From: Schmidtea polychroa
Lineage: Eukaryota
Assembly: GCA_044892525.1 (NCBI GenBank)
Contig: CM097885.1
Location: 82,894,001-82,958,000 of the forward strand
Length of the DNA stretch: 64,000 nt
Direction of reading: 5' to 3'
The position numbers and the translations under genes were made by a program. This document shows, one piece after another, positions 23,486 to 60,180 of the stretch. Below the pieces are notes generated by a model that worked only from the letters and a program-made list of their open reading frames with translations, was not told the origin of the DNA and made no database searches. Position 1 is the first letter of the stretch. Each line of letters starts with the position of its first letter.

Positions 23486-24349
23486 TAAAACCTTAATCTG
23501 AACAGTCAATAAAGTATCGTTCAAATCTAAATATTCGGTTTGCGAACCATTAATATAAAACTCGATATCATTTCTACTATCGGTAATTGAATTCATAGGA
23601 AAAACTTCCTCAAATGCCCCAAATTCTATTACAAATCATTTTGCAAATATAGTTCCATGTCCTTTCATTCGTTTGTTTATACGTGATATTCCATGTCTTT
23701 TACGTTTTGGAGCATGAGCTGGAGCTGGAGCTGGAGGTTTTTCTTTTTGAAACATACCTGCAACCCCGGGTAAAACTTTCCCTAATTCTGCTAAAGCATT
23801 TGATTTTAGAGATGGTAATATTTTCTGTTCATTCCTTCTGTAATATATAAATTATCTTTAAAAGTGTATGCATGCTCAGTTATTTCAAAGTATGATAGCT
23901 TAAATTTGAATTCCACTAAATTATTAGTTTTTGGATGTGTAGAGAGATTTATTTTGACTGTATCATTAAATACATTACGTAAATCAGTAAATCCAATACG
24001 TTTAGCATCAGCCATTGTAGAAAATAAAATTTCGAATGGCTTATTCAAGCAATTCATGTATAAATATTGACCATCATCATAAATTATAGGTTTACTTGAT
24101 TTCGATGACTATCTTTATCAATAAGAACACTAATATATTCCGTTACTGATACTTTCTCATTATATTCAATAACGGATTTGCTATAGATTGGGAATAAATT
24201 GTATACAAATTGTTGGGTGTACGTGGGGGAAATGGATAACTATTACTAATATGCACACAAACTCTCATCATTCCGCTCAGACGCTTCCCTCGTACACGCC
24301 CCATGATCATGCAAATATTCCCACGTATGAGCCCGTAGTGATGTTCTAC

Positions 24350-24458
24350 GTTGGTGCTGCCCACACGGGTCGGAAGAAGCTAGCAGGTGAGCCTCTATCT
24401 TAAGACTACTCCTAACCCCCTCTCAGTACAGGTTCTATGGTGCCTTAGAAGGACTTAC
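24350..24458. other. Conserved structured LTR motif, copy C
   Basis: CAGGTGAGCCTCTATCTTAAGACTACT...TAGAAGGACTTAC. Confidence 0.75.
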
Positions 24459-24753
24459 CCGTTCCTACATTTGCAATCGGCCCGACCCTGGTCCAAGAGG
24501 ACGGCCTTCATTCAAGGATGCTGTTCCAGTTTAACAATTCAATTATGCATTTCACTCATCATTCTCATCATTCAATCAACAAATAAAGAAAAATAAAATT
24601 TGTATTACATTCAAAAATTATCGAGACCGAAAAATCGTACACCAACATGCAATAAACTATTGATTACATAATACCGACGAATTGTTAGATACAGAGATAT
24701 TAGTTAAAGGTCTTTTCGAAATGAGAGATGGATCCCATCGTCGGGTCGGAATT

Positions 24754-25514
24754 TCAGAACGCATCTCCATCGGCGAATACTTCGTCTATGTCTACTGGCA
24801 ACCTGCGATCCACCAGATACTTAATGCCCTCGGCTGGAACCACTTTGAATATCTCCTTGGCCGGAATTACGTGGGTGGCTGAGATATCCTTAATTGTGGA
24901 CTGGGCCATGGATAAAGAAGCTTCTAGCGCCGCCATGGCGTTCCTGCGCTTCTGATTTTTCTCCGAGCGTGTTAATCTATTGCGTTTCCGACGTGGCTTG
25001 ATAGTATCTACTGGAACCTGTGACATAGGTTGAGGTACTAGAATCGGGGCCAAGATAGGGTCCGATGAGCCTCCTGCCATGGGTCTGTAGCCCGAGAGAA
25101 TTGGAGCGGGAATTAGTGGCAGATGCGGCCCATGCCCCTTACAACCAGTTGTGGTTGACTGTGCCGATTGGTGGTGGATCGGGAACACGTTAGTCCCGTC
25201 TTGCACTGGATACTCGCGAACTCGTTTCGCTATTTCTGATTCCGAGTAAACTTTATGGAGTGCCTCTGATTGGGCTTTTATGGTTAGCCTCTGGCACCGA
25301 CTTTCTTCTAGGAGACTGTCTCGGCAGTGCTCCAGGGCAATATTTTGCTCTTTTCCTCTTTCATTTGTGGCGGGGAGAACCACGTGCCTTCATAATGATT
25401 GATTCTTTTCTTTAGTGCCCCGATGTAGAGGTGAAGCTGCGCGATGTCAGCATTTTTGTCCGCGCAGGAAAAACAAGGACGAAGAGTTTTCTCGGTATTG
25501 ATTGGGGTAGTCAT
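24754..25514 (-). pseudogene. LTR-encoded protein homologous to 6488-7237, frameshifted near 25380
   Basis: Two overlapping ORFs (68 aa and 209 aa) together align with the 249-aa ORF; TTTAG acceptor-like site immediately before ATG. Confidence 0.8.
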
Positions 25515-26615
25515 CTAAAGATTAAAGATATTTACGTTTGCTTTTAGTATTTCGTTGATCGACGATCGTATTTTTGCGGCGCGAGTTTTATCACCTACAT
25601 CCTTCATAAACTGAACTTAAAGGAAAAATTATCTCACACATACATTCAACATTCGTCCTTAAACTCATTTATGCCCCAAACATCCACGATAATTCGCACA
25701 AATCTCTGTAACTTATTTAAAAGAAAATGAGAATAACCATGTTAATTTGCTCGTCTAAATCAATCTCATCTCAAATTCGGGGTGTCGATTATGGTTAAAT
25801 ATATCGTTGCTATTCACAATGTTAATATAGTGTCATTAATCGGGTTTGTGATGTTACTTAATTACATTTTTCTTTGCACTGTTAATTTTATTAAATTGTC
25901 TATTTATTTTTAATATATTATTATTTTCAAATCTCCGCTGGACTCGTTGTCATAACGACGCAACCTAAGGTGTTTTTGTATGGAAATATCTCTATCCGTG
26001 TGTATTGTGAAATACCGTTTGCAAGTAAAATGTCTCTGCACGAAAAGTACTGCCTGCTCATTTGTTTCTACATACCGTTCTACCAGCTCAGGCGAAGCCT
26101 ATACTATTATGCAATCTATCACGTCATACAAGAACTTTGCCGTTTATACTACTGTAGTCTTCTAGAGCGAATTTCTCTACAGCCTGTGAGTGTATGTACT
26201 CTTATGGCATTATCTACTAGAGTTGTTATGAGTAAAGGCCTTACGTATGTGTGTGTGATTCGGAGGGTTGTGAACGAGCTAAAGCTAATCATCTAATCTC
26301 TATGGTGTTGTAAATTCACGATAGCAGCTGTCAACACACTCAATGGATGAATCTTAAAAATTTTTCTATGCAAGTAAACATATTCAAAAACTTATTACCC
26401 GCCGTTACCCAGTGCTTAGCAGAACTACTGCTATATATCATTCATAGCACTGGGCAGAAATTGACCGTGACGCTGAGAAAATAATTGTATTTTTCAATTC
26501 AGGTAGGACGAAAAGCGGAGATGATCTCGCACAATGCTGGAACCGGATTCGGACGCGGCTACGACAGAGATATTCGAACACGGCGCTTTATGTAGAGCAA
26601 ACACTGAAGGGAAAA

Positions 26616-42227: not shown

Positions 42228-42520
42228 CTTTGTCTGAATAATGATATTATCAACTCAACGTCGCACATTTATATTCGTTTTATTATTTATTTATTGTTAC
42301 AATTCGATATAGGTGGGTTGTTTTTAGAAGTTTTCCGCTTAAGTTTACCTTTAGTGGATTTGGGGATTTTTCTACACTATTATATAATATTTTACTGGAT
42401 ATATACGCCGATATTTACAATTAGTATATACAAAATTATTCGTCTCGCTACTCAGTCCTACTCTTCCCGTCTGTTCGACAATCTCTTTGAATTCTTCTCT
42501 TTGTCGCTTATCCATTTCTA

Positions 42521-43149: not shown

Positions 43150-43944
43150 CTATATACGTGAGTTTGGAGGGCGCTGAGCATTCCAGGCCTCCACCCACTG
43201 TTCCTGCTTGATATTATTTGGTCTTTTTACCTGATGTTGAAAATTTCTGATTCTGGTCATCTCCAGTTCTCCGCGATGCCGTCTATCTTTGATTATTTTT
43301 ATTGTTCCCCCCGTTATGATTAAAAATGCCCCTGCTATTATTATACCGCTGATCCACATCATTTGTTTTACGCTTATAATTTCCGATTTTTCTTTGCTCG
43401 TCATGATGAATATCGTCTCCATATTATCCGGACTCCCGCCTTTACTATTCCCTTTTATCATTCCCCGTATTCTTGCTATCTCTTCGTTCATACCTTCCTT
43501 TGCCATCTTTTGTATTTTTTCCATCTCCTCCTCTGACACATAATTGTCCTGATATTTCTCACTGGTTTTCTTGCGTTTTCCTTCCTCCTCTTTTTCATCA
43601 TTGAGTTTTCTTTTCTTCCCTCTTTTCCCAGGGTATCGTCGACATTCTCTTTCTGGACCGTTTCTCAGGATACAGACCGTATATTCCTTTGGCGGTTGTT
43701 GTTGCGTTACATATTGTAGGCAGTCTTCTCCTGGTCCTAGTCTTGAAATACAAACTTTGTGCTCTTTCCTTGGCTGAAGTTGTGTTATCACTATCTCACC
43801 TCCTTTACTCAGGTGTACCTCTTTCCATTTAACTTTTGTTATTTTCTTCCCGTTTCGATGTTGGTACGCTTCTTGTATTCCCACTTCCGTTATTGGTTCC
43901 GCATCTTCATTTTTTAACACTAGTCTCTGATAAGCTCTAGACAT
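43150..43944 (-). CDS. C-terminal polyprotein segment with TM helix
   Basis: Same frame as 43951-45531, separated by one TGA; TM MMWISGIIIAGAFLIITGG; short internal repeat KEHKVCISRLGP/KEYTVCILRNGP. Confidence 0.7.
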   Translation of the reverse strand: MSRAYQRLVLKNEDAEPITEVGIQEAYQHRNGKKITKVKWKEVHLSKGGEIVITQLQPRKEHKVCISRLGPGEDCLQYVTQQQPPKEYTVCILRNGPERECRRYPGKRGKKRKLNDEKEEEGKRKKTSEKYQDNYVSEEEMEKIQKMAKEGMNEEIARIRGMIKGNSKGGSPDNMETIFIMTSKEKSEIISVKQMMWISGIIIAGAFLIITGGTIKIIKDRRHRGELEMTRIRNFQHQVKRPNNIKQEQWVEAWNAQRPPNSRI

Positions 43945-43950
43945 GCATCT

Positions 43951-45531
43951 TCATAATATACACCTTTCTTTTAGATCCCATTCTTCTTTTAGATCCCATT
44001 GTTGCTCTTGTACTTGCTTTTTCTTTTCTTGTTTTAGTTCTTCCTCCTTGTTATCTTTGTTTTCCGTTTCCTTGGCTTCCTTTATCGTTCTCATTCCTCC
44101 ATGGGCTGTTATCATTTCCACCATTGTTAATACGAGTATCATTATCATCATATTTGTCTCCATTTCTTTGTTGGTAAAAAGTAGGCATACCCTCTGTTTT
44201 CCATTATTCGTCTTTTCCTCTTCTTTTGTTTGGTTTCCCAGTTTATTTTCCGTCTTTTCCATACTTGAGTCGTTATTCCCTTGATTATTCTCTTCTGGTT
44301 TCCTTTTCTCTCCGTCATCGTTTCGCCCTTTTTCATCCTTATCGTCGTCTTTATCGTCTTTATCTCCCCCGCTGTCGTTTAAAATGTCGTCCTCGACATT
44401 TATATCATTCACCAATCTGCGATATGCTGTTAGCACTCTATTTCTTGCTAATTTCGCTTCGAACTCAAATTCTTTTCTTCCCGTTGCTGCATGTCTCTTT
44501 CTATTCCATTCTTTTACCAATTCTCTTAATTGTACCCGGCGATGTTTTCCGATTCGCTTTTGTTCGTTTTGATTTTGCGTGAATTTGAGGTCTTCTCTGT
44601 TCAATACGATTAATATAATTTTTGGAGTTCCTCCCTTTGTTAGTGTATTTTTAACCATTGCATTTTCTCCGTTTTCGTAGAACTCATTGATGTTCACTGC
44701 ATATTTATTGCTTTGTGGTATTCTCCATGTTAACAGTAACTTCATGGCTTTTAAGTTTTTCCGTATCGTATTCCATTGGAACTGTGACGTGTTTTTACAG
44801 ATATTTTCTACCTCGGATCTTGTCGCATTTTTACAGATGAATCTAATCATTTCCAAGTTTGGTTGTATTGTTGCCCAATCCATGGTGGAGTTTCCTTCAT
44901 TCGATATTTCGTCGAGTATTGATCCTGATTGATGTAGTATATGTAATGTTTTCGGGTGTATATTTGTTATTGCTGCATACATCATTGCTGTTTCTCCTTG
45001 TTCATTTTTTGCATTAGATTCTTCTCCTAAGTCTCTAAGAATTCTTATGATGGTTATTGCTCTGTTTTCTTTTGCTGCTAATATTGCTTGTTGTAATGGT
45101 GTTCTTAAATCTTTTGTTGGTATGGTAAACGCTAGTGGTATGAATGTTTTTATTTTACCTATGTCTAGATTTGTGGTTTGATCTCTTGCGTAGGTGTGTA
45201 CTGTTTTTATTATTTTTGCCAGTATCGCTTCATCAGATAAATCTCGCATTTCTTCGAAGAACACCTCTTTGGCTTTGCGTATTATTATCTCTTGGTCTGA
45301 GTTTATTATCTTGGTTTTACCTGTTGTTGTTATATCAGTTATTATTTGATCGACTTGTTCCTCAGACTCTCTTGCTTTTACTTTCTTTATTTTTATCTGT
45401 TTCTTGTTTGAACTAATAATGCGTTCCTCCGCCGTAAGAACTTGAATAATACTTAGGTAGTTTTCTCGAATGTTATTCATAGTCTCCATCATATATAGAA
45501 CACTCACAATTTCCCAATATTTTACTTGCAC
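43951..45531 (-). CDS. Polyprotein segment with second ankyrin-repeat module
   Basis: RTPLQQAI, NEQGETAMMYAA, SNEGNSTMDWA; overlaps the integrase ORF end by a one-base frame change. Confidence 0.8.
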   Translation of the reverse strand: MQVKYWEIVSVLYMMETMNNIRENYLSIIQVLTAEERIISSNKKQIKIKKVKARESEEQVDQIITDITTTGKTKIINSDQEIIIRKAKEVFFEEMRDLSDEAILAKIIKTVHTYARDQTTNLDIGKIKTFIPLAFTIPTKDLRTPLQQAILAAKENRAITIIRILRDLGEESNAKNEQGETAMMYAAITNIHPKTLHILHQSGSILDEISNEGNSTMDWATIQPNLEMIRFICKNATRSEVENICKNTSQFQWNTIRKNLKAMKLLLTWRIPQSNKYAVNINEFYENGENAMVKNTLTKGGTPKIILIVLNREDLKFTQNQNEQKRIGKHRRVQLRELVKEWNRKRHAATGRKEFEFEAKLARNRVLTAYRRLVNDINVEDDILNDSGGDKDDKDDDKDEKGRNDDGEKRKPEENNQGNNDSSMEKTENKLGNQTKEEEKTNNGKQRVCLLFTNKEMETNMMIMILVLTMVEMITAHGGMRTIKEAKETENKDNKEEELKQEKKKQVQEQQWDLKEEWDLKERCIL

Positions 45532-48130
45532 TTTATCGGTAAATTGAGATATAGATTTTTGAAGTTTGTAATTCGCTTTCTGATCAGCTGTTCGTCTTTA
45601 TGGTTTGAGAGTTTTATACCCCGTTGTAGTAGTTGATTTGGGATTTCGAATAGATGATGCCCTCTCATAGCTTCTCTCATCAAGGTGTTTTCTCCTTTGG
45701 TAAATGTTTCGTTTATATCCACCATATAATCGTTTTTCATCGGGATTCTCCACGAAATTAGTATTCCAGTAATTGTTATTAATTTCCCTTTGATAGCGGT
45801 TAATAGTCCGTCGTACATGTTTCCTATCTCTCTGTTATCTTCGTATGACAATAGATCTAATAAGGTTATGAATGCTTCAGTGCTTTTTCCTTCGATTGCA
45901 TGATGTAGTGCATTTTTCTGATCGTGGTCTTGTGTGGTTATCTTTGACCCGGTTTCAAGTAATGCGATAATAATATCTTTAGCTTTATCCCGATTTGCTG
46001 CTATCATTAGTGGAGTATAACCTTGATTGTTTTCTTGGTCTGTTGAAACGTTACAATCGCGAAATGCTTCAATTGTTTCTAGTATTTGTTCATTATTACC
46101 AACCTTTAAAAGCTTGTGCAGTGGTGTATCTCCATAGTGGTCTGTGATCGTGAATAATATAGGCCATTGACTTTTAACTATCCTGAGCAATGGGTGTGTT
46201 CTTTCTCGATTTGCATAGTTTTCTATCGTTGTTAGCAGACCTCCCAATATCTCAAAATCTAATCTATCTTTCGCCCATCCGGGTATTTTAGCTTTTACCT
46301 CTTTTATGATTTTCTCTGCTTCTGATGGTTGTAGCCCCAGTTGATTAGTCGTTGGTTCGTTTATCTGCTGTAACATATTTATTCTGTATGTTTGTGATCT
46401 TGTTGTTAGTGTTCGCCCTTCTGGCTGGCTGGTAGCTGTTTTCGGTATGGGTTTACAACGTGCAACGTTTACATATATTGGCCTTGTAAAAGGATTGTTT
46501 ACCAATCGTACTCTTACATTAGTTTCTCCGACGAATAGAATCTCATACGGACCTTTGCCGTTTCGTTGCAATTTTTTGGTGGTTCCTGGAATCAATTCTG
46601 GTGTTTCAATCATCACCCAATCACCGGTTTGAAATGTATGTTGTTTAACGTTTTTCTTTCTATCATGCAGATCTTTATAACTTTCTTGATAAAATTTTAT
46701 GTTTAATCCTGCAGTTTCCCAGATTTCCTGCATTCTTTCCTTGAACTTGGTTACATAATCGTCTATTTCCATATATTGTGATATTGGTGGCTGATACTCT
46801 AAATCCATTGGCATATTGCATTCTCTGCCGTACATCAACTTGAACGGACTCATCTTTGTGGATGCGTGAATTGACATTCTGTAAGCCATTAAGCACAGTT
46901 TTATATACTCATCCCAGTCTCGTTGATGACGATCGACATAATTCGATAACATTTGGATCAATGTTCCATTGAATCTTTCTGTCATACCATTTGTTTGTGG
47001 ATGATACGGTGATGTTCTTAATTTTGCAATCTTGAAGTAATTGGTTACTTCGCACATTATTTCGCTCATGAAATTTGTTCCTTGATCAGTTAATATCTGT
47101 TTTGGTGTTCCATACCGACAGCATATCTTCTCTACTAGTATTTTTGCGATTGTTTTCGCTTTCTGGTCTGCCATGGCGAATGCTTCGGGGAATTTCGTCA
47201 AATAATCTGTGATCACCAATATATACATATTTCCTCTATCCGATTCTGGTAGTGGACCGACTACGTCCATTGATATCATTGTCATTGGTTCTGCTGGTAC
47301 TGGCATTGGTTTTAATGGTGCCTTCCATTTTGTTCCCGTGTTCTTTCTGGTTGCGCAAGTTATGCAATTTTTTACCCATTCCGTTACGTCTTCAGTCAAT
47401 GTAGGCCAAAAATACTTTTGTTTCATTCGGGCTAACGTCTTTTTAGATGACATATGTCCTCCGAGTCTTCCGTCATGATACTGGGTCAGCAAATCTTTAC
47501 GTCTATTCTCTGAAATGCACATCAGTCTTTTATCACCATCCATTATCAATAACCAATCTTTTTCTATTATATATCGATGTCGATGTTTATCCATATGTTC
47601 TTTCAGTTTTTGATCTTTCTCATATACCTCCGCTTTCCCTGTTTTCACATATTCAATAATTTGCTTCAACTCTGTATCCTCTTGTTGGTCTTTTCGTAAT
47701 TGGCAAAAATCTAAATCTTCCGCTACCATCAGACATATCCGTTGCATTTCGTGATCTACTAAATCTGGAAAGATAAATCTTGACATACAATCTGCATTGG
47801 CATTCGCTCTTCCCGCTTTGAATTTTATGAACGGTGAATATTCTTGTAACTGCATTGCCCATCGCATCAATCTGCTTGAAGCTTCTTTGTGCTGTCCGAG
47901 CCATACTAATGGTTGATGATCAGTGGTTATGCATATTTCGTGACCCCATAACAAATATCGAAAATGTTTAATCGCTTGTATTATAGCTAACGCTTCTCTT
48001 TCTGTTACTGAATAGTTTTTCTCATGCTTTTTAAACGTTCTGCTGTAATAGCCGATTACTCTTTCTTTTCCTTCTTCATCTAGTTGTCCCAGTATTGCTC
48101 CGGCTGCATATCCACTTGCATCTGTTGCTA
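45522..48130 (-). CDS. pol: RNase H (C-part), integrase and first ankyrin module
   Basis: ATDASG/EALAI/ITTDHQPL RNase H; H..GH..C..C zinc finger; MDVVGP, TDQGTNF, TERFN catalytic D,D,E; GDTPLH, GYTPLMIA, KNALHHA ankyrin repeats. Confidence 0.95.
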
Positions 48131-50371
48131 CAAGAATGGTTTTTTGAAATCTGGATGTACTAGTATTGGGGCTTCAATCAATTTATCTCGTAATGTCTCA
48201 AATGCTCTTTGTTGTTCTGCACCCCAAATAAATGAAATATCTTTTTTCACTAATTCCTGGATTGGTTTCGCAACACTTGCGTAGTTTTTAATGAATTTCC
48301 GATAATATCCGCATAATCCGAGGAATTCTTGAACTTGGGTAACAGTTTTTGGTGCTGGACAGGTTTTTATTTTCTCTATATTTCTGGGATCTGGTTCTTT
48401 GCCTTTTGCTGACACTATGTGTCCTAAAAACGTAACTTTCTCTTTTGCCCAATCACATTTTGATGGTTTGAGTTTCAATTTCCATTGTCGTAATCGAATG
48501 AAAACGTTTCTGATATCTTCCAAATGTTGTTCAAATGTTGCTGAATATATTAATAAATCATCAATATATACCATACACTGCTTGATCCCGTGGGTGACAA
48601 AGTTCATGCACCTTTGAAATGATGCTGGGGCATTGGTCAGTCCGAATGGCATTTTCCTGAATTGGTATAGATCTCGACCCAATGTGAATGCTGTTTTCTC
48701 TTTGTCCTCCTCTTTGACTTTGATCTGCCAATATCCGCTCTTTAGATCTAAAGACGTAAAGTATGCGGCCCCCTGTAACATAAGTAACATCTCATTGATG
48801 TCTGGTAATGGGTATGTGTCTCTTTTCGTTACTGCATTTAGTTTCCGATAATCGATACAGAATCTCTGTGTACCGTCCTTTTTCTTCACCATGACTACCG
48901 GAAATTGCCATGGTGAACAACTTGGTTCGATCACTTGTGCGTCTAACATCTTTTGTACTTCTGCTTCGGCTATCTCTTTCTGTTTTTCGGCTAGTTTGTA
49001 TGGACGTAGTGCAATCGGGGTTTCGTCTATTAAGGGTATTGCGTGTAATGTGACATCGCATGCTCCCAAATCTATATCCGAAATGGCGAATATATCTTTA
49101 TATTCTATCAGTAATTGTTGAAGTTTTTCCTTTTCCTTCTCCGTTAGCAAGGTGCTATCAATTATCCATAATTCGTCAGCTTTCATTGTTTCGTTGGTGA
49201 CTTTTGGTAATTCAATATCCATCATGGGTGTCAATCTACCCAATCTTTCATTTTCATATATGATCTTGTCTTCTTCCTCGAAATTCGTGATGTTGATTGG
49301 TATTTCCTCTTCTTCATTTATGGTTATTATTTCTCTTGCTAATGGTAATTCTCGTCTTTTCTCGAATGATTTGCTTGGCTCAAAGATAGCTTCCCCTTCT
49401 AATCCAGTATCTACTTTTATTTGACATATCATCTGTGATTTCGCTGGTACGATTATTTTCTCCGGGCATCTGATTATTGCGTTCATCTTGCATATTCTAC
49501 CCATTTTATCTTTCAGACACATTGTTGTTAGATCGATTACTACTTCCTTGAACAGTTCCGGCATTAAATCTGTTCCGATGATGCATGGTTCGCTAAGTTT
49601 GGGTATTACTGCCAGGTAAGTTTCGATTTCATTATCTTGATATCGCAACGTGGTCCACCATCTTCCTACTACATCCACGGTTTCTTTACTGCATGCAATA
49701 ATATGAATAGTTGTTTGTTCGATGTCTTTCCAATATTTACTGGGTATTTGGTTTATTGCTATTGCTGATACATTCGCTCCAGTGTCTATCATTGCGCTCG
49801 TCTCTTTCCCGTTGATTTGGATCATGACTGTTACTGCTGCTCCTCCTGGTGAGCTCATTACTGCTATTGTTCTTACGTCATCGGCTTGGTCTACGCTTTT
49901 GGTCCTTCTAGTTGGCATATAATTCATTCCTGGTTGACTTGGTAACTGTGGATACATATTTTGTGTCATGGTCAAAGCTGTTTGTTGTCCAACGATATCC
50001 GGTGGTATATAACTTCCGTTGGCTATCCAGGTATTTGTTTTTTCTTTCTCCCAGTATGGTGCTGTTTCTATTTGCTTTTCGTTCGGGTTTCTGCTTGGGT
50101 ACGGATATTTGTCATTCCCGTTATCATCATCATCACTATCACTGCTGTTTGATCGATTTCTAAATCTGTCTAAAAATTTTGGTTTGTTCTTTTTTAGTTG
50201 CGCCCTCGTTGCTTCATCATACATTGTTTTCCGGAATCGTCTGCCAACTTCCTCGTCAGTCCCTTTTATTTTTGTCAGTATTTTGATTAATCGTTTTATT
50301 CTGTGTATATCTTTTGAATGACCGTGTAACACCATTGTTTTCGCCAAAAATGGTAGGAAGCCTACTATCAA
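48128..50371 (-). CDS. pol: Glycoprotein tail, aspartic protease and reverse transcriptase
   Basis: MIDTGANVS and CIIGTDL protease; PWQFPVVMVKKKDG, FCIDYRKLN, LDLKSGYWQ, MPFGLTNAP, YIDD RT. Confidence 0.97.
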   Translation of the reverse strand: MIVGFLPFLAKTMVLHGHSKDIHRIKRLIKILTKIKGTDEEVGRRFRKTMYDEATRAQLKKNKPKFLDRFRNRSNSSDSDDDDNGNDKYPYPSRNPNEKQIETAPYWEKEKTNTWIANGSYIPPDIVGQQTALTMTQNMYPQLPSQPGMNYMPTRRTKSVDQADDVRTIAVMSSPGGAAVTVMIQINGKETSAMIDTGANVSAIAINQIPSKYWKDIEQTTIHIIACSKETVDVVGRWWTTLRYQDNEIETYLAVIPKLSEPCIIGTDLMPELFKEVVIDLTTMCLKDKMGRICKMNAIIRCPEKIIVPAKSQMICQIKVDTGLEGEAIFEPSKSFEKRRELPLAREIITINEEEEIPINITNFEEEDKIIYENERLGRLTPMMDIELPKVTNETMKADELWIIDSTLLTEKEKEKLQQLLIEYKDIFAISDIDLGACDVTLHAIPLIDETPIALRPYKLAEKQKEIAEAEVQKMLDAQVIEPSCSPWQFPVVMVKKKDGTQRFCIDYRKLNAVTKRDTYPLPDINEMLLMLQGAAYFTSLDLKSGYWQIKVKEEDKEKTAFTLGRDLYQFRKMPFGLTNAPASFQRCMNFVTHGIKQCMVYIDDLLIYSATFEQHLEDIRNVFIRLRQWKLKLKPSKCDWAKEKVTFLGHIVSAKGKEPDPRNIEKIKTCPAPKTVTQVQEFLGLCGYYRKFIKNYASVAKPIQELVKKDISFIWGAEQQRAFETLRDKLIEAPILVHPDFKKPFL

Positions 50372-52230
50372 TTTCCAATTTACTTTCTTTCTCTCTTATA
50401 GATATCAAAACACGCTAACATTTGAGTCAATATTACTCTGACAATCTGAATAATTAAGATGATTCCCAGTATTCCTGCCATCATTTGACCGAACACTAGA
50501 AATCTTCCCCACATTGCTTTCATCATGTTCGACGTGGCTTGTTGAAAATGATCTGGTGATAATAATAGTTCATAATTGGGACCTGATTGGAAATTTGTTC
50601 CACCAGTTATGGTAACCATATTTGATAAAATGGATTCTCGCCTTGCTGGGAATAGTACGTTTAGTCATGCTGTTTCTAAATCCTCTGGTGAGTACATACC
50701 TGCTTTTGACACATCAATTGGTTTGAAATTTTGTTCTGTTGCGAGTTCTATTAATCCAAACTTTTTAGGTTCTTGTACTTCGGTTTTTACCGGTAACATT
50801 ATCCATTTCCCATCGGGTTTTTCATAATATGGTCCGTATGCATTTGAACAGTTAAAGGTGTTCGGATAAAATCCAATTTGGTTCATGATTCTAGTGACGG
50901 GTTGAACGAATCTATTCTGCCCTTTGTAACTAATTTCTAATTCGTTTGGACATTTTCCTGGTGGAATTGTGGGTTTTCTTGGCATTCGCGCAAACGTCTT
51001 GGTACATGCATATGTATACATCACCTCTCCTACCATCCTGCCAAAATGTCCATCCGGTAACGGGAGTGATGGCATCGTGTTATCTGGGTGTGTTATTGCG
51101 ATGACTAATTTTGTTTTTAGTATCTCTTTATTCAATGAACAGTCATTTTGTATGAGATCGTAATATACTTTTTGCATTGTCGTTTGTCCTCGATGAAATA
51201 AAAAGTCCATTTTGTTATTGGCATACAGGTACAGCTTTACGTCCTCTGTTGATATCTTCCCCACTGCTCGGTCTATTACTTGTCTTGACATGTAAATGCC
51301 TGCGTAGTTGGTTCTGTATACTATGCTGTCACATTTGGTGGTCTCTTTTTCTCTGATGAACCTCATACCTATATCCGGATCATCTGTAATTAGTGCCGTT
51401 GGTGTTTTTTGTGTTGTGAGTCTTTTTTCTTTGGGTGATGGGGGAACTGGTTTTCCATTTCGCATCCTTACGTTTCCATTCTCTTCATCGTCATCTTCGT
51501 TTTCATAAATTTCTCCTTTTACTTCATTGAATAAAGCACTTTTTAACAGTTGGAGTCGGCATTTTTGGGTGTTAGCTTCATATATTATGGTCGAAATTCC
51601 CGTCCTACACACGTTTTCCGTAGCTCTGCATGCTGGGTTGGTTTTCATTTGATAATTATTTGCGTCGAATTGCGCTTCGTATTCCTTCAACTCCACTGTG
51701 TAGGATTCGATTACTACTACCCCCGATATCACCTCTCCTCTGATCGTGTAGGTGCCCCCGTTGCATGATCCATCAGTTGATTTTACTCGTCCGGCTACAT
51801 AGATGCTTTCAGTCTTGATCATTCCGCTTTGTCCGTGTATTGTTACTCCATCTCTGATTCTCATCGCTCCGGTTCTAAAAAGCTCTTTACAGTCTTCTCG
51901 TTGTATAGGTACTATTTCTTTATATAATCCGGGTAGTATGAGAGTTGAATATGAATATTGCCCACAGTAATATGCCAACACCTTCTTTGATATTACGCAT
52001 TCTCTTGCTTGTGTTCGGATAAAATCTGACTCTTGATATACGTGATAGGAGACTTTCTTTTTTACTATATCTAATTTATTCGGAGACGCCTGTCTACATT
52101 CCTCTATATCTCTCAGCGAGTACTTTTCTCCCATTACTGAATTGTCACAGTCGTAAATTGTAAATCCTGCTGCTCCGCTTGTGCATAGCATCCATATCAT
52201 CATGGTCATCATTAAAGAGTTGATCGATGC
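50340..52230 (-). CDS. env: Env-like class III fusion glycoprotein (chuvirus G / gB-like) with signal peptide and TM
   Basis: Signal-like MMTMMIWMLCTSGAAG then FTIYDC..YSLRDIEEC..C..YCG..DC..G..AG..DGSC.G..YANNKMD..C..GEVMY..C..C..EL..F.QP.TRI..C..Y..GKW; TM FLVFGQMMAGILGIILII; one in-frame TGA at 50665. Confidence 0.82.
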
Positions 52231-54726
52231 TTTCCTGCTGGCTGGGTCTTTCATTGGCAATTCCCATTCTAGTTCGTTTAGCAACTTCTTCAACCGAATT
52301 TGCATTGATCTCTCTTGTTCGTTTTTTCGTGGCGCTTGTATAAGCCTTTTCCACCCGCCGGCGCGGATAATATGTGGCTCAATTGTATTTTCAATGATCG
52401 TAACTGTCATTTCTACATGGTTTGCGAATTGTTTGTTAGGTATTTTCCTTGCTGCTAATCCCATCAAATTGTACATTAGATACGTTAATACCACTAGATG
52501 ATGTTCGTCGTCGTTCGCGTTTAGAGTTAATTGTTCAATTACTCTCCTTGTCTCTTCCCAATCTGTTTTAGTGGTTTTTGTTTTCTCTTTGATTAATTTC
52601 GGAATTATTCCGGATATTGTATTCCATAGTTGTCTGGCGTCTACGCTTGCTACTTTTCGTTGCCATAACCGTCGCAATTGTAGGTTTGTTATTATTAACA
52701 TATCCTTTACTAGCTCTCGTATCCATTTTTCACCTCTTTCGATTGTTGGTTGGGCCTCTCTCAGATCCCACACTATTTTATCCAGTTTCTCCAATCTGAT
52801 TTGTCCTTGTTCTTGTTTTAGTTGTTCTCTGTTTTTAAATTCTGGTTTTTCTCCTTGCTTCCTAGGTCTTCCTTTTGCCCGTTTCTCCATCATTGTTCCA
52901 GCTTCCCTTGTCATTACGTAACTCGGGTTTCTCTCATTATCTGTTCTTGGTAATGAGCTATCGTTGTTTCTCAGCCACTCATTCCATTCGTCTATTATTT
53001 TGTCCGTTTGACCTTCTGGTGTTACTTTTGTTGGTCCTTTTTGTCGTTGGAATTGTTCGTCGGTTTCGGTTTCGGTTTTATTATCGATAATCTCCTCGAT
53101 ACTCAGCTTACTTGGTTGTTGATAGCTAGTTGACGGTTGGTCTGTGGTCCAGATTTCTGCCCCTGTCGGCCATCTCACCAGAATTGGTGATCTTTCTTCC
53201 GCTCCTTCGTCACTATCTTCTAATATGATTTCCTCGATTTCTTCGGTTTCATTTGATTTGCTTGGCACCTTGTCAGGACTTGGTGTACTTAAGCTACCTT
53301 TCGTGGTTTTACTGGATTTGGTTTTCTTTTTGATTGGTTTTCCCAACGTTTCTGCCAGTGTCAATATATTGATCTCCCCCAGTCTCATGGGTGTTATTCC
53401 GACGTCTGCATTATCATCTAATGATTTTCCGAATAACTGTAGGTGAAATGGAGTTTCGTAGGCTAGTTTATTTTTTAATTCCCTGATCTTCGTTGTTGGG
53501 TGCACTTCTATATCCTCAATGCTTTTGTCGGGATACTTGACTCGGATACTATATCTTTCTTGGGTATCTTGTGCCCACTCTTGATTCCTCCATTTTCTAA
53601 TGATTTGTTCTAGCTGTTCTGGATACCATTCGTTATACTGTCGGTATTCCTCTATCGCTTTCGCCATTTCTCTTAGATTGTGGATATTCTCTGATGTCTT
53701 TAGGATGATGTTGGCCAATGCTATTACCTGTCGTTTTTGATTTTTTGCTCCCATTGCTAAGATATCACCTAATTGTTTGTATCTTTCCTTCTCTTCTCGC
53801 TCTCGGGCTTCTATCGCTTCCTCACTGTCCATGTCGGCATATTCGCGTTCCTTCTTTCTCATCGCATGAATATGTCTGGTTTCCGTTTCACTTTCGGACG
53901 TGACGTCCGCTTCGCTTTCGCCGTCCGATACCGGTTCTACTTCGTCCTCTTCGTATTTTGGAGGTTCATCTTCCTCTTCTTCTGATTCACTTTCTGTCTC
54001 GCCAATGTCTGTTTCTACGAAAATTCCTTTCCTGACTTCCCACTCTTTATTTTCCGCATTCCACGCCCTTTCCCATGGGGTTCGTCTGCAAGATCTAGTA
54101 CTCAGTTTTTTTATTTTTCCTTGTAGCTCCTTCTCTTTTAGCCATTGTTGATGAATTTCAATTATCTCTACTGATTTTTGGTATAGCGTTTTCATCCTGT
54201 CTCGTATCTCTTTCTGGTATGTTACATCTCTTGTTCTGAATTCGTCCATGGGCAATATTCTAATTATTTGGTGATTATCCCACATTCCCATTTCGCTTAA
54301 CGAGGTATCGTCCTCTGCCCGTAATATTATTTTATCGTACATCATGACTACGTCATCTATCATGCCATCACTACTCTCGCTTCGTACTTTTTCCGTTACC
54401 TCTTGGTTTATCTTTGATACTAAGTCATCCACCGTACTCTGATTGCTCATTTTTATTCGTCGTTTCTCCTCGTTTGGTAACCATATGGTTATTTCCAATT
54501 TCTTTAGTTGCGTTTCTTTTAACCTTCCATATTTGTGGATCAAATTTATGGTTCTCCAATCGCTCATCCTGAGCAATTCTGTATCTCGTAATCGGCTCAT
54601 TAGTTCATGCATAGCTGGGGTTCGTTTTGCTATGAGCAAATCCCAGTTATCTTCAACTTGTTCTTGGATTTGTTTGATTAGTTTATCTAGATTTCGTCTT
54701 AAGGTGCATTGTTTTATTTTTTCCAA
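50665..54726 (-). CDS. Polyprotein segment: ubiquitin-like domains, acidic linkers, Bcl-2-like domain, glycoprotein ectodomain
   Basis: 1353-aa ORF; UBL-like at ~54500-54250 and ~53555-53360; BH2-like IEPHIIRAGGWKRL with GGW at 52351-52359. Confidence 0.8.
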   Translation of the reverse strand: MEKIKQCTLRRNLDKLIKQIQEQVEDNWDLLIAKRTPAMHELMSRLRDTELLRMSDWRTINLIHKYGRLKETQLKKLEITIWLPNEEKRRIKMSNQSTVDDLVSKINQEVTEKVRSESSDGMIDDVVMMYDKIILRAEDDTSLSEMGMWDNHQIIRILPMDEFRTRDVTYQKEIRDRMKTLYQKSVEIIEIHQQWLKEKELQGKIKKLSTRSCRRTPWERAWNAENKEWEVRKGIFVETDIGETESESEEEEDEPPKYEEDEVEPVSDGESEADVTSESETETRHIHAMRKKEREYADMDSEEAIEAREREEKERYKQLGDILAMGAKNQKRQVIALANIILKTSENIHNLREMAKAIEEYRQYNEWYPEQLEQIIRKWRNQEWAQDTQERYSIRVKYPDKSIEDIEVHPTTKIRELKNKLAYETPFHLQLFGKSLDDNADVGITPMRLGEINILTLAETLGKPIKKKTKSSKTTKGSLSTPSPDKVPSKSNETEEIEEIILEDSDEGAEERSPILVRWPTGAEIWTTDQPSTSYQQPSKLSIEEIIDNKTETETDEQFQRQKGPTKVTPEGQTDKIIDEWNEWLRNNDSSLPRTDNERNPSYVMTREAGTMMEKRAKGRPRKQGEKPEFKNREQLKQEQGQIRLEKLDKIVWDLREAQPTIERGEKWIRELVKDMLIITNLQLRRLWQRKVASVDARQLWNTISGIIPKLIKEKTKTTKTDWEETRRVIEQLTLNANDDEHHLVVLTYLMYNLMGLAARKIPNKQFANHVEMTVTIIENTIEPHIIRAGGWKRLIQAPRKNEQERSMQIRLKKLLNELEWELPMKDPASRKASINSLMMTMMIWMLCTSGAAGFTIYDCDNSVMGEKYSLRDIEECRQASPNKLDIVKKKVSYHVYQESDFIRTQARECVISKKVLAYYCGQYSYSTLILPGLYKEIVPIQREDCKELFRTGAMRIRDGVTIHGQSGMIKTESIYVAGRVKSTDGSCNGGTYTIRGEVISGVVVIESYTVELKEYEAQFDANNYQMKTNPACRATENVCRTGISTIIYEANTQKCRLQLLKSALFNEVKGEIYENEDDDEENGNVRMRNGKPVPPSPKEKRLTTQKTPTALITDDPDIGMRFIREKETTKCDSIVYRTNYAGIYMSRQVIDRAVGKISTEDVKLYLYANNKMDFLFHRGQTTMQKVYYDLIQNDCSLNKEILKTKLVIAITHPDNTMPSLPLPDGHFGRMVGEVMYTYACTKTFARMPRKPTIPPGKCPNELEISYKGQNRFVQPVTRIMNQIGFYPNTFNCSNAYGPYYEKPDGKWIMLPVKTEVQEPKKFGLIELATEQNFKPIDVSKAGMYSPEDLETA

Positions 54727-54728
54727 TT

Positions 54729-55600
54729 TCAGCTTGATATTAAAATCGTATTCGGCTTGGCGTCTTTAGCCCATTCATGAACATTGGTTGGTTGTTTCTC
54801 TTTATGCAACTTTAATATTTGGGTTTCTCCTGGCCAGATCAATGCATCTATTAAGTGCATGTCTGGTTTAATTTGTTCCCCTTGATATTGATACAGGTAT
54901 TCTTTCTTTCTTGAACTGCCCAAATGTTCTCTTATCCAATCGAAAAGCTCGTCTGTAACTATTTCTTATCCATATTCTCTCGAGCCCTTTACTCGTTCCG
55001 ACTTTTATTACGTAGTGTGTTGTCTCCGCTTGTTTCATCTTTTCCATATATTTCTTTATTATCGTTTTTTCCTCGCTTGGTATTAAATCTTTTTCGTTTC
55101 TTTCTAGTTTCATTATCTTTTGTAGGACGCGTCTATATGGTATAATGAAAATAAATTCCTGGTTTCTTACCACCACTGGAAGTATTTCTTTTACTTGTTT
55201 TATCGCTTCTTCTCTTTCTTTTCTCAATTTCATCTCGATATTCTCATCTTCACTTTCACTTGTCACGTCGCTTTCACTGTCATCTTCATCTGCTCCGATC
55301 TTTTCTCTTAGTTGTTCGATATTTTCATTTAACTGGAATATTTCTCCGCCAAGGCTACTCACATAATCCTCATCGTCATCCGTTGATAATACCTTCTTTG
55401 TCGTCCTCATCATATTAATTCGTAGATTTCGCATTCTTGGTACTTTCTTTAACTTCTTATGCTCGAATATCGTTAAATCTTCTGAGTCTGATTCTTGTAT
55501 CATATCATGATTTAGATGATTAATCTGTTTCCCATTTTCGTTATTTTCTGCTTCCGTTTCTGTTTTGATTTTCTCGTGTTCCCTTTCGATTTTATCTTTT
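54729..55600 (-). CDS. Polyprotein segment after gag with SUMO/ubiquitin-like domain (frameshifted)
   Basis: Joining the 211-aa and 64-aa ORFs gives HYVIKVGTSKG..FRL....KEYLYQYQGEQIKPDMHLIDALIWPGETQIL, a beta-grasp-like pattern. Confidence 0.55.
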
Positions 55601-55640
55601 ATCTTTTTCCAGAATATCTTCTGAATTCTCTGATTTCCTT

Positions 55641-57340
55641 TTAACGGTGTTGTTGGATTTTCTTTTTTAGCTGCTGTAATCGTTCCTTTGGTTTCTCTGG
55701 TTCGATCAATGGGACTACTCTTGGATTTTTCCCATAATTATAGCAATACTGCTCTTTTATCTCTTTTACCATTCTCATCATATTTATTCGTAATGGTTGT
55801 TCTTGTCGCTGCTGAATTCGCTCTCTTTTTATTCTTTCTTCTTCAGCTTGTAGTCTCTGCCATTCTTGTGCATGTTGTTGTACTTCATAATTGTTAAGAT
55901 TCTCGGTGCTCCTCATCATACGTATATTCTGAGTTTGTTGTGGTGCTGGTTCTTGTCTTGGTCTCATCATTTGTTGCATCATTTGTTTCATTTGGGAAAT
56001 TTCTTGCATTACATTCATTTGTTTCCCCTCACTGGGGTTACCTTGTCGTTGCGGATTTGGTGTATAATTATTATTCCGTTGTGGTGGTCGTTGTTGTTGA
56101 CTCCTTTCTCGGCATTCTCTTGAGATATGACCTGGTTGACCACAGTTAAAACATGTTCTCATTTGGCATATGTTTTCCGTGTGCCCTCGTCGTCCACACC
56201 TACTGCAATTTGCGTTTCGGTAACAATCTCTATTCCAATGCCCTGGTTTACCGCATGTTCGGCATTGTTTGTTATCGTTCGCATTTCGTCGATTATTAAA
56301 ATTGTTCCCATTATTTGAGTTGTTGCGTTCGTTGTTATTCCCGTTTGATCGTCCGTGTGGTGGTTTGAAAATTTGATGCGCACCTGGTATAAACTGATTC
56401 ATCTTTGGTTCGTGATTGTTGTCATCTCCATTTTCCGTTTTCACTGTTGCTGTTGCGATTCTTCCCTCCTCTTGCATGACATTCATTTGTGCTGGGAGGT
56501 GTAGTTCGCATCTTGTGGCCCAATCTATGGCCTCTTCTAGTGTTTTACACATTTGACATCCCACCGAGGCTCTTACCTCTTCCCGGCGTAGTCCTTCTAT
56601 GAAATACCCAATTAAAATTTCCTCCGGCAAGTTTCCGTTCATGGCCTTTTTTGCCAATCTTCGCAATTCGCTTGCGTATAACGTTATTGACTCGTTTGCT
56701 CTTTGTTTTCTACTTCCCAGTTCGCTTAACGCTTGATTTATTGGTTTGCTGGCTCCGAAGGTTTTCCTCAGGAATGTTTTGATATCGTCCCATTTATCTA
56801 ATTTCGTATTTCTTTCTTTAGCTTCTAAGTACACTTCTAATGCGCTATCGCATAAAAACAACGGCATCCTTTTGCTAACTGCTTCAGATGTCCATCCACA
56901 CACATCGATATAGACTTCAAAGTTGGTTATGAACGTTGCCAACTTGTTCGCATTCCCGTTGAACGGTTCGCCTCTAAATTTTTCTTTATACTCGTCGGTT
57001 CTTACCACATTCGTCATGATTGGTTCTTGAAACTCTATTCTTTCTTTTAAATTTTCCAGCGATGTCGCTAAATTATGGACGGATAATTCTTCTGTTGACC
57101 CGGTTAGGTTGTTTGTTATATCAGATAGGCTTTCTCTGCTTCTAGATCGACTGGGCGTATATCCGGCTGTGGGGTTTTCTTGATCGTATATCTGTGTTTT
57201 GTTAGTTCTTTTTGCTCCTTGTGATATTCCTCTCTGATGCCTAAATGATCGTCCTTTTTTGAGTTGGTCTAATTCGTCTCCTGAAAATAATACGTCTCCT
57301 CGCTTACTTGAAGATCTAAGGTTGGGTTTATCCGTGATTC
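55641..57340 (-). CDS. gag: Gag (capsid plus three CCHC zinc knuckles)
   Basis: FNG....FITNFE..W.....LFL.DSAL capsid pattern, QRANESITLY..LRRLA; CRTCGKPGHWNRDC, CSRCGRRGHTENIC, CFNCGQPGHISREC; frame open without ATG up to ~57340. Confidence 0.95.
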
Positions 57341-57865
57341 TTTCTTACTCTTTTCTGTCTTTTCACGTGGATTTTTCTACGGTTAGCGGCTGCTGAATTG
57401 GGCAAGTTCGGTTCTGATAGTGTTTCCTTCGAGGAATATTCCGCGTAATTTCTCGGCTGATTTCCGGAGGAGATATCTGAGTCCTTGATTGACTTCTGCT
57501 AGTACGTCGATGCTAAGTATTTTGATAATTCCGTCGTAGATAAGAATGTCGTTGTTGTCTTCCGTGTTTGGGTGGGTTTGTCTTCTGTTGAGCGGGTTCT
57601 GGATTGGCTTGATTGGCTGGATTGGTCTGATATCTAGAATGAAAAAATGATATCGTGTTGCATTTGCTTACACGAATCAATCATTCCTTTTTGCCACATT
57701 CAAGCACAGACACCGTTTTAGGGCCTCTGTTATGCTCCTCTTCTTTTCCCCATATAATTCCTCGTGGACTATAATTACCCATCAACCCATAGTTTTCGTC
57801 GATTTTAAATTATCTATATGGGGTAGTCACAATTATCTATATGGTCGTATTAATTATCTACAGTG

Positions 57866-58345
57866 CTAACTGAAGTAAATCGTGTTCTTCTCCTTTATCA
57901 CACATACACATAAAGAACAATGCGTTAAACTGACGGCGCATTCGTCACAATGGCTAAGGTGTCCACAAGGTAGAATTAGAATTCTGGCAGGTCGCGTCTT
58001 ACAAATGTTACAAGTTCTCAAGGCCGCTGCTTTCTCTACTATCGATGTTCGTATTCTCTGAGACAGAGTTTTTACTTGTTCGCGTATTCTCACATATTCG
58101 ATGTTCAGAGCGGGGTCGTCGAGTCGTTGCTGCATCCATTGGTAATGGGTAGACAAGTCGGTGTCGGTGTTTGTTGCTCCCAGTTTATTGGTTAAATAAT
58201 TTTGTTTTGATATCAGAGGTGCATCGTGGCGTTGTTGTTCCAGGGTCTCTATTTGTTGCAGTTTTTCCCTTAACGTCTTTATGGAATCGTTTTCTATGTC
58301 GACGAACCGGCTTAGTCGTTGTAAATGTTGTCGGGCTTCTGACAT
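57866..58345 (-). CDS. RING-finger protein (IAP/MDM2-type C3HC4) in the 5' leader
   Basis: Coiled coil then CNICKTRPARILILPCGHLSHCDECAVSLTHCSLC at the extreme C-terminus; acceptor-like TATTTAG 2 nt before ATG. Confidence 0.88.
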   Translation of the reverse strand: MSEARQHLQRLSRFVDIENDSIKTLREKLQQIETLEQQRHDAPLISKQNYLTNKLGATNTDTDLSTHYQWMQQRLDDPALNIEYVRIREQVKTLSQRIRTSIVEKAAALRTCNICKTRPARILILPCGHLSHCDECAVSLTHCSLCVCVIKEKNTIYFS

Positions 58346-58751
58346 GTCTAAATAAGTATGTTGTCATTACTCGGTCTCACTTAAAAAATTAAAAATAATA
58401 TTATTGTGTTATAATCAATATTTGTTTGGCTTTTATTCGCTATTGTTTTATATTTTATTCACTCTTTGATAATTTTCCCTTTTTGTTTAATAACTTAGAA
58501 TTAAACAGAATTAGCCAATTCCCATTTTCTTTTCTCATCATTCTCAATCACATTCATTCAAGCTCATTTAGATTCGTTTATATTCATAGTATGCTCTATT
58601 TCACACAAAACAGCTCGTATCATCATTCTAATGCACTATAATATCGATTCATTTCAGTCCCGTTCCATTTTTTATCATAATTAATTAAATTGTTAATCTA
58701 ACACGTCATACCCAATAATAGGTAATCAAACAAATGAAATTAATAAGTGAG

Positions 58752-58769
58752 ATCCCGGCTGAGCCCCCA
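58752..58769 (-). promoter_or_regulatory. Primer-binding site, tRNA-Pro type
   Basis: TGGGGGCTCAGCCGGGAT matches 16/18 of the canonical PBS-Pro TGGGGGCTCGTCCGGGAT; 7 nt from the LTR end CA. Confidence 0.85.
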
Positions 58770-58776
58770 AAAATCA

Positions 58777-59487
58777 TGTTGGGTGTACGTGGGGGAAATG
58801 GATAACTATTACTAATATGCACACAAACTCTCATCATTCCGCTCAGACGCTTCCCTCGTACACGCCCCATGATCATGCAAATATTCCCACGTATGAGCCC
58901 GTAGTGATGTTCTACGTTGGTGCTGCCCACACGGGTCGGAAGAAGCTAGCAGGTGAGCCTCTATCTTAAGACTACTCCTAACCCCCTCTCAGTACAGGTT
59001 CTATGGTGCCTTAGAAGGACTTACCCGTTCCTACATTTGCAATCGGCCCGACCCTGGTCCAAGAGGACGGCCTTCATTCAAGGATGCTGTTCCAGTTTAA
59101 CAATTCAATTATGCATTTCACTCATCATTCTCATCATTCAATCAACAAATAAAGAAAAATAAAATTTGTATTACATTCAAAAATTATCGAGACCGAAAAA
59201 TCGTACACCAACATGCAATAAACTATTGATTACATAATACCGACGAATTGTTAGATACAGAGATATTAGTTAAAGGTCTTTTCGAAATGAGAGATGGATC
59301 CCATCGTCGGGTCGGAATTTCAGAACGCATCTCCATCGGCGAATACTTCGTCTATGTCTACTGGCAACCTGCGATCCACCAGATACTTAATGCCCTCGGC
59401 TGGAACCACTTTGAATATCTCCTTGGCCGGAATTACGTGGGTGGCTGAGATATCCTTAATTGTGGACTGGGCCATGGATAAAGAAGC
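58777..59487 (-). mobile_element. 5' LTR remnant (U5 end plus end of the LTR ORF; motif copy D at 58950-59024)
   Basis: Identical by eye to 24211-24921 (offset 34566). Confidence 0.92.
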
Positions 59488-60180
59488 CATAAGTTGATTT
59501 CTTTATATGGCTGTCATGAGGGTAATAGTCATTATTTTTTCCTCTCATATTTGTTTGATTCGAATTATATATTATTGATTTATTTTTATTAGAGTAATCA
59601 TAATTATCGTACCCATTTATCCTTCCTCTAGCATCTCTCCCATCTACAAAGCCTCTGCCGGATACATCCTGGCAATCAAGATCACAGGATGGTGGAATCA
59701 TTATTCGATGCGCTGCAGCTATCTGTCTTCCAGGTTCGGCTTCAGGTCTGCCAGGCTGATGTCCATAGTCCAAATCGTGAGGCGGAAGGGTCATGTCTCG
59801 GTGTCCCATCGTCATCTGCCGATTCAGCGCAGCTTCATTTCTCCCATTGTTTTGGTCCTTTAAATAAATATTATTAAAACTCTTTATTTCTTTATCAATA
59901 TTTTTATTGTTTGCATTATTTTGGTATCCGCTCTCCTGGACTCTTGTGAGCAGAGTAATCGCCCTCTGGTCCATATCTGCCGCTCTCTTCATCTTCCCAT
60001 TCAGGGTTTGCTCCACATAAAGAGCTGTGTTCGAGTATCTCTGTAGCAGCCGCGTCCGAATCCGGTTCCAGCATTGTGCAAGATCATCTCCGCCTTTCGC
60101 CCTTCCTGAATTAAAAAATACAATTAACTTTTCGCTGTCACGGACAATTTCTGCCCAGTGCAATTGAATGTTATATAGGT
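59488..60180 (-). mobile_element. 5' fragment of the NeSL/R5-like family, 3'-truncated
   Basis: Translation GKMKRAADMDQRAITLLTRV..HDSHIKKS matches the N-terminus of 26616-30095 with substitutions and an indel. Confidence 0.85.

Follow-up and report, generated by a model that had tools for sequence, protein, structure and literature searches.

The 64,000-nucleotide stretch of Schmidtea polychroa DNA analysed here (the window; contig CM097885.1, positions 82,894,001 to 82,958,000) carries an LTR retroelement on its minus strand, a Burro-like giant Gypsy element by its architecture. Behind its primer site lies a small frame of 159 amino acids (hereafter referred to as the RING ORF), running on the minus strand from an ATG at 58345 to a TAG at 57866, with IYFS as its last residues. 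It begins 407 nt downstream of the tRNA-Pro primer-binding site (PBS, 58769–58752), and ahead of gag, whose frame starts at 57344. An intact frame with this ending, placed between PBS and gag, had been described from the letters of the window alone (the sequence-only reading), and this description is confirmed. The features of the locus are the following.

57866..58345, minus: RING ORF, 159 amino acids, with a helical N-terminal domain, an IAP-type C3HC4 RING and a short tail (ORF list, Pfam, structure-library matches, dN/dS)
58348..58360, minus: candidate splice acceptor, a T-rich stretch with an AG two bases ahead of the start codon (sequence)
58752..58769, minus: PBS, pairing over 18/18 bases with the host-genome tRNA-Pro(TGG) 3' end plus CCA (sequence match)
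58777..59487, minus: what is left of the 5' LTR, matching the 3' LTR end without a difference over 711 bp and truncated by a LINE piece in inverted orientation (self-comparison)
24211..25521, minus: 3' LTR (outer end 24211, inner end not fixed), with remains of an LTR-borne ORF of ∼250 amino acids (sequence comparison)
43150..57344, minus: Burro-type polyprotein region, in 8 pieces (ORFs, Pfam)
57863..57864, no strand: deletion junction 2–3 bases past the stop codon, where about 1.35–1.5 kb of the spacer between RING ORF and gag is missing (blastn against copies L050, L105 and L112)
42471..42473, no strand: deletion junction of 1.3 kb, where the TRAF-like gene of sister copies is gone (comparison with sisters)

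The carrier element and the family of the RING ORF

The polyprotein reads, in order, gag (Retrotrans_gag and zf-CCHC), a Bcl-2-like stretch, a fusion glycoprotein of Monjiviricetes type, protease, reverse transcriptase (RT), RNase H, integrase and ankyrin, as identified by Pfam, with the Bcl-2-like motif recognized by eye. The window copy of the element is defective, with its polyprotein in pieces and LINE sequences inserted inside it; the RING ORF is one of its undisrupted frames, as the sequence-only reading had noted. The spacer between RING ORF and gag measures 525 nt in the window vs 1.7–2.2 kb in 11 full-length sisters, and its deletion is private to the window copy among the copies compared.

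Several other features of the window were noted. The two LTRs are identical over 711 bp (24211–24921 and 58777–59487) despite an interior broken in many places; gene conversion, recent mobilisation in trans or an artefact of the assembly may explain this. The 5' LTR is broken off by an inverted fragment (59484–60164) of the LINE family inserted at 26444. The LTR encodes an ORF of ∼250 amino acids (24754–25389 in the window; L114:4746–5504) that has no counterpart in Pfam; over 89 residues, the versions of the two families are 27% alike. In the nested NeSL-type LINE, a stop at 30093–30095 separates frames of 1215 and 1105 amino acids in the same phase, at the start of the Ulp1-like protease domain. 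The tRNA-Pro(TGG) genes form a long tandem array with a 475-bp repeat (G000:C1:130.90–130.95 Mb), with 1,556 pattern matches genome-wide.

The family of the window element is hereafter family A, and a sister family found by a BIR search is family B. All 150 scored copies of the RING ORF, the best-scoring of 3,452 genomic candidates and hence biased toward intact ones, match it at 43–100% identity, and 131 of them have no internal stop; among 70 copies examined, 62 are stop-free with a full RING motif. Start, length and location, 244–646 nt from the primer-site motif, are conserved wherever that motif was found. An upstream BIR exon was considered and rejected, as merely this interval separates primer site and ATG. 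In a set of 60 distinct coding sequences (5 stop-bearing copies dropped, identical ones merged), dN/dS is 0.12–0.20 throughout the dS bins above 0.02, and the 26 most similar pairs give 0.41; these values come from the 1374 unsaturated pairs of 1770, the other 396 being left out as saturated, and the pairs are not independent. On the same alignment, the ratio is 0.18 in frame vs 1.12–1.61 in four other frames, and 0.34 in the antisense frame sharing third positions. The N-terminal domain is likewise under purifying selection. Selection and frame controls rule out a chance ORF, and the RING ORF is a real, selected accessory gene of the family. The sequence-only reading had made its proposal depend on conservation among family members and had suggested dN/dS across copies as a check: conservation is found in at least 150 genomic copies, and the ratio indicates purifying selection.

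Some copies (L023–L030, L051) are much closer to the window in the RING half (dS about 0.06–0.09) than in the N-terminal half (dS about 0.5), and are probably mosaics from recombination between subfamilies. In the diverged copy L035, a frame of 285 amino acids (2014–2868, oriented), mitochondrial-carrier-like by eye, lies about 1.1 kb upstream.

In three lineages, the RING ORF is the first gene to follow the primer site. Its family-B orthologue (160 amino acids, 28% identity over 152 residues, E 9e-19) lies behind a matching tRNA-Pro site, is stop-free in 150 of 150 scored copies, and has a pN/pS of 0.18 over 13 distinct copies. The RTs of the two families are 89% identical, vs 24–53% for the other cargo. 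The third lineage is represented by the gene model P0010, which joins the RING ORF to gag and ends before loop 2, so that its catalytic residues are unscored; it has no close copy in the genome, the best being 35%.

Behind pol, family B carries a TRAF-like gene and a stand-alone BIR-RING IAP of 392–393 amino acids. In family A, neither the window nor any of the three copies traced beyond pol has a BIR-RING IAP. For the family-B gene, at least 150 BIR matches were scored, mostly frames of 392–393 amino acids (e.g., L103:6959–8137, or G000:C1:201110959–201112137). A complete TRAF-like gene, with zinc fingers, coiled coil and MATH domain, is present behind pol in both families (L106:7800–9185; L103:5399–6814), with its N-terminal RING scored in family A only. 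In RING trees of 61–63 columns, three low-copy host RING exons, one of them with an upstream BIR exon, cluster with the RING of the element IAP (support 97/89), and the RINGs of the 5' gene fall outside this group. The N-terminal domain of the RING ORF compared with the pre-RING part of the element IAP gives an hhalign probability of 0.05%. The possibility that the RING ORF is a remnant of the element IAP was rejected, as both genes coexist in family B and their N-termini are unrelated.

A T-rich tract and AG lie 0–3 bases ahead of the RING ORF ATG in all lineages. More generally, a YAG lies 0–3 bases before the ATG at 14 of 16 accessory-gene starts vs 37 of 306 internal ATGs and 12 of 109 spacer ATGs; the accessory starts (from L101, L103, L106, L107, L110, L111, L114 and L121) were hand-picked, and four of the AGs double as in-frame stop codons. 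This arrangement suggests that the accessory genes are made from separate spliced RNAs, with a spliced RNA set like that of complex retroviruses, or spliced-leader trans-splicing, as possible sources. Contigs of presumed RNA runs cover the 3' part of the RING ORF, gag and the LTR, with none at the start codon, a coverage that is evidence of neither transcription nor splicing, and no spliced read was seen at the candidate acceptor.

The RING ORF protein and its contact residues

Within the protein, the following parts were delimited.

58019..58345, minus: residues 1–109, predicted all-helical domain with no family match (AlphaFold2)
57908..58012, minus: RING core, C112–C146, C-x2-C-x11-C-x-H-x3-C-x2-C-x6-C-x2-C (alignment)
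57875..57877, minus: Y157, tail aromatic, counterpart of cIAP1 F616 and XIAP F495 (alignment)

A Pfam search, proposed by the sequence-only reading for its C-terminal C3HC4 RING, is positive for zf-C3HC4_3 at residues 110–151 (E 1.8e-8; 34.4 bits for a cut-off of 27), and orthologues from other lineages score 44–46 bits. With these ligands, IAP spacing and a score above the curated cut-off, the domain is an IAP-type RING. The closest solved chains are the RINGs of cIAP1, cIAP2 and XIAP (E 5e-9 to 3e-7, extending to 2e-6 with BIRC7). Y157, located eleven residues past the last RING Cys, places the tail aromatic as in IAP RINGs, bearing out the earlier remark on the tail. The original label, “IAP/MDM2-type”, holds for its IAP half only: MDM2 chains match at E 0.18–0.88 (0.002 with a profile), and kinship to MDM2 was rejected. 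The ligand pattern of the MDM2 and MDMX RINGs is C2H2C4, and the C3HC4 RING ORF therefore lies outside that family. As the sequence-only reading had stated, no BIR domain is seen, and the Pfam search found none in the RING ORF; UBA and CARD domains were not detected in it either. Since the family-B IAP aligns to family-A loci and to the window via the RING alone, the RING ORF is not an IAP in the sense of a protein with at least one BIR.

Six helices are predicted in the N-terminal domain (residues 3–15, 22–41, 47–55, 64–76, 78–92 and 94–109), with a pLDDT of 83.5 for the whole protein and 87.6 for the helical part modelled alone. The coiled coil that had been proposed is present as heptad stretches, but the prediction is a multi-helix bundle rather than one long coiled coil. 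Residues L25, K28, Y68, L75 and I98 are kept in three lineages. In a fold search with this domain alone, the best matches were spectrin-type three-helix bundles (Z 5.0, rmsd 4.3, 84 aligned), with Foldseek E-values of at least 1.4, which assigns the domain to no family and is no evidence of a new fold; Pfam and ESM Atlas searches returned nothing usable. A homodimer model (two copies and zinc, alignment unused) scored 0.03, for a mark of 0.32, and bears on binding in neither direction. Outside the genome, the single RING ORF sequence matched no protein, and none in viral contigs; a family-A profile retrieved five generic RINGs, and an N-terminal profile two family-B-type proteins. The predicted product thus combines a helical domain with an IAP-type RING that binds zinc.

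The contacts of cIAP1 (from PMC6349121) were scored in 78 full-motif copies, comprising 54 of 59 from the main group of family A, 11 of 11 from a divergent subfamily, and 13 of 13 from family B. All eight zinc ligands are kept in the scored copies, as is the H588 site (78/78), and the F616 site is Tyr in 77 of 78. The I604 site is hydrophobic, the helix Leu is retained, and the loop-1 Ile site is Ile or Val in all 54 main family-A copies and in 11 of 13 family-B copies. The residues by which cIAP1 activates E2∼ubiquitin are altered in every scored copy. The linchpin Arg (R606 site) is found in none of the 78, being replaced by Val (30), Thr (14), Asp (13, comprising every family-B copy), Lys (11), Ala (9) or Ser (1), and all 11 Lys-bearing copies are without the loop-1 hydrophobic residue. 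The loop-2 Pro is likewise found in none, the M575 site is charged (Lys, Glu or Arg) in all, and the R614 site is non-basic in 77, with a His in the remaining copy. In the window copy, S144 occupies the loop-2 Pro site and V147 the linchpin site. The RING ORF therefore lacks the linchpin Arg and loop-2 Pro of a canonical active RING E3. In the BIR-RING IAP of the element, Pro, Arg, Lys and Phe are all present in each of the 27 scorable copies (of 29), and all four low-copy host RING exons have the Pro and the Arg. Both residues are absent from 20 of 138 scorable RINGs among the best 150 library hits, a sample that favours sequences like the query and contains one family-B protein.

In RNF38, changing the linchpin to Val, Thr, Ala, Ser or Asp lowers E2∼Ub binding 21–28-fold, with minimal activity for Ala and Ser, and Lys is second best (PMC12326332). 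The R606A mutant of cIAP1 is defective (PMC6349121). However, the changed residues do not prove inactivity, because XIAP has Tyr at the linchpin and is nevertheless active as a ligase, and this position can select another E2, as in Hrd1 and Doa10 (PMC12326332).

Possible roles of the RING ORF

A RING that stays folded, with an invariant tail aromatic and a drifting E2 face, is most simply explained as a partner RING. I therefore tentatively favour, with a probability of roughly 0.45, a weak or non-catalytic, MDMX-like partner of an active ligase, which would damp or redirect ubiquitin signalling. The protein would be made from a spliced RNA, and its RING and tail aromatic would pair with an active RING ligase, either a host IAP or the IAP of the sister element. 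Its own ligase activity would be low, judging from the changed E2∼ubiquitin contacts, and the partner would be damped or redirected, with the helical domain perhaps picking the place or target. MDMX is such a partner of MDM2 (PMC8459461), IAP RINGs can heterodimerise (PMC3972657), and inactive scaffold RINGs have precedent in MDMX and BMI1 (PMC8459461, PMC12326332). As no BIR-RING IAP is seen in the family-A copies followed, the host would have to supply the partner there, or it would have to act in trans. Counting against a partner RING, the loop-1 Ile, helix Leu and I604 site are retained; the loss of the R614 trans-tail contact weakens the version in which the tail helps the partner. A more elaborate form, which I consider unlikely, is that giant retroelements encode a dedicated pseudo-ligase. 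This MDMX-like decoy would have a spliced RNA to itself, heterodimerise with host IAPs (in family B, also with the captured element IAP), and rewire ubiquitin-dependent death or defence signalling where the element moves.

The retained loop-1 Ile, helix Leu and tail Tyr, together with the eight zinc ligands, could also belong to a true homodimeric E3 of low activity, using an E2 not of the UBE2D type and recruiting a host restriction or silencing factor for ubiquitination through its helical domain. Purifying selection on that domain, the function of XIAP and of yeast ERAD ligases without the linchpin Arg, and the Lys of 11 copies, second best in RNF38 (PMC12326332), fit this account. I nonetheless regard this main rival as rather unlikely, since several contacts are altered together and differently per lineage, the pattern of a surface released from one function: Asp is fixed at the linchpin in family B, and the Lys-bearing copies have all lost the loop-1 Ile. 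An anti-restriction role, as the sequence-only reading had suggested, may apply through ubiquitin. The drift of the E2-side residues would equally suit a RING outside ubiquitin chemistry, a small structural or regulatory protein of the element's life cycle. The arenavirus Z RING protein would be an analogy. The fixed first place behind the primer site in three lineages and the retention of the gene in family A, although the BIR-IAP gene is missing there, also speak for such a role. It appears quite improbable, as the IAP-type tail length and aromatic persist at 28% identity, and the TRAF-like, IAP and Bcl-2-like cargo points to ubiquitin and death signalling.

The sequence-only reading had proposed a second anti-death or anti-restriction module, by likeness to baculoviral IAPs; in its anti-death form, this would be an anti-apoptotic ligase of IAP type, acting alongside the Bcl-2-like domain. 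IAP RINGs are indeed the nearest solved relatives, and Burro elements carry BIR, BCL2-like and TRAF domains (PMC6431247). Yet IAPs are defined by the BIR (PMC3972657), which is absent here, the catalytic contacts are changed, the N-terminal domain is unrelated to the pre-RING part of the element IAP, and it is the element IAP, not the RING ORF, that groups with host IAP-like RING exons. In the sister family the canonical IAP job is held by the separate BIR-RING gene, a better candidate for a true anti-death function than the RING ORF. This proposal is left with a slim chance, and the evidence does not support the protein acting directly against cell death. Effects on cell death that arise indirectly, via IAP partners and in either direction, fall within the favoured reading of a partner RING.

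Relation to known systems

Burro and GYPSM1, known from planarians (Jurka 2007 and Grohme 2018, both cited through PMC6431247), are giant LTR retrotransposons of Gypsy-like type. The element described here shares with them a Gag-first polyprotein of about 5,000 amino acids, with BCL2-like and env/fusion parts before the protease and ankyrin after the integrase, as well as MATH/TRAF, BIR and SMC-like cargo and accessory ORFs (PMC6431247). Here, this architecture is seen in the Pfam order in the window and in the long open frames of sister copies L112–L113; as for cargo, TRAF is present in families A and B (deleted in the window) and BIR-RING in B only. Both the element type and its apoptosis and ubiquitin cargo are already published (PMC6431247). 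The text of that article mentions no separate ORF for an IAP-type RING following the primer site, and a literature search found no description of the RING ORF; the figures and the Repbase GYPSM1 entry, which lay outside that search, may show or annotate one. The Burro label “AIR1 ... RING Zn-finger” probably denotes the Gag zinc knuckles.

The RINGs of cIAP1, cIAP2 and XIAP (PDB 6hpr, 3eb5, 4ic2) share with the RING ORF the zinc-ligand spacing, the PCGH motif, the preceding helix, and a tail ending 2–4 residues past the aromatic. In contrast, the RING ORF has no BIR, UBA or CARD, and its equivalents of the loop-2 Pro, linchpin Arg, M575 and R614 are changed. The BIR-less RINGs of iridoviruses, ascoviruses and mimiviruses have a similar small helical-plus-RING layout, with Foldseek matches over the RING only (E at least 5e-3); here, however, the carrier is a retroelement, and the likeness is limited to the RING, with none shown for the N-terminal domain. 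To MDMX (MDM4) and BMI1 the likeness would be in the way of working only, a folded RING and tail being kept while the protein's own activity is expected to be low; there is no sequence kinship to either of them beyond the RING.

The proposal that Burro elements meddle with host apoptosis and ubiquitination stands untested, largely because the cargo sits within a polyprotein of 5,000 residues. Small, separate, intact in most scored copies and selected in lineages only 28% alike, the RING ORF offers an easy handle on it. Should it prove a decoy RING, retroelements would have a parallel to regulation of the MDMX/BMI1 type; should it prove an active ligase, it would exemplify a catalytic RING that lacks the customary linchpin and Pro.
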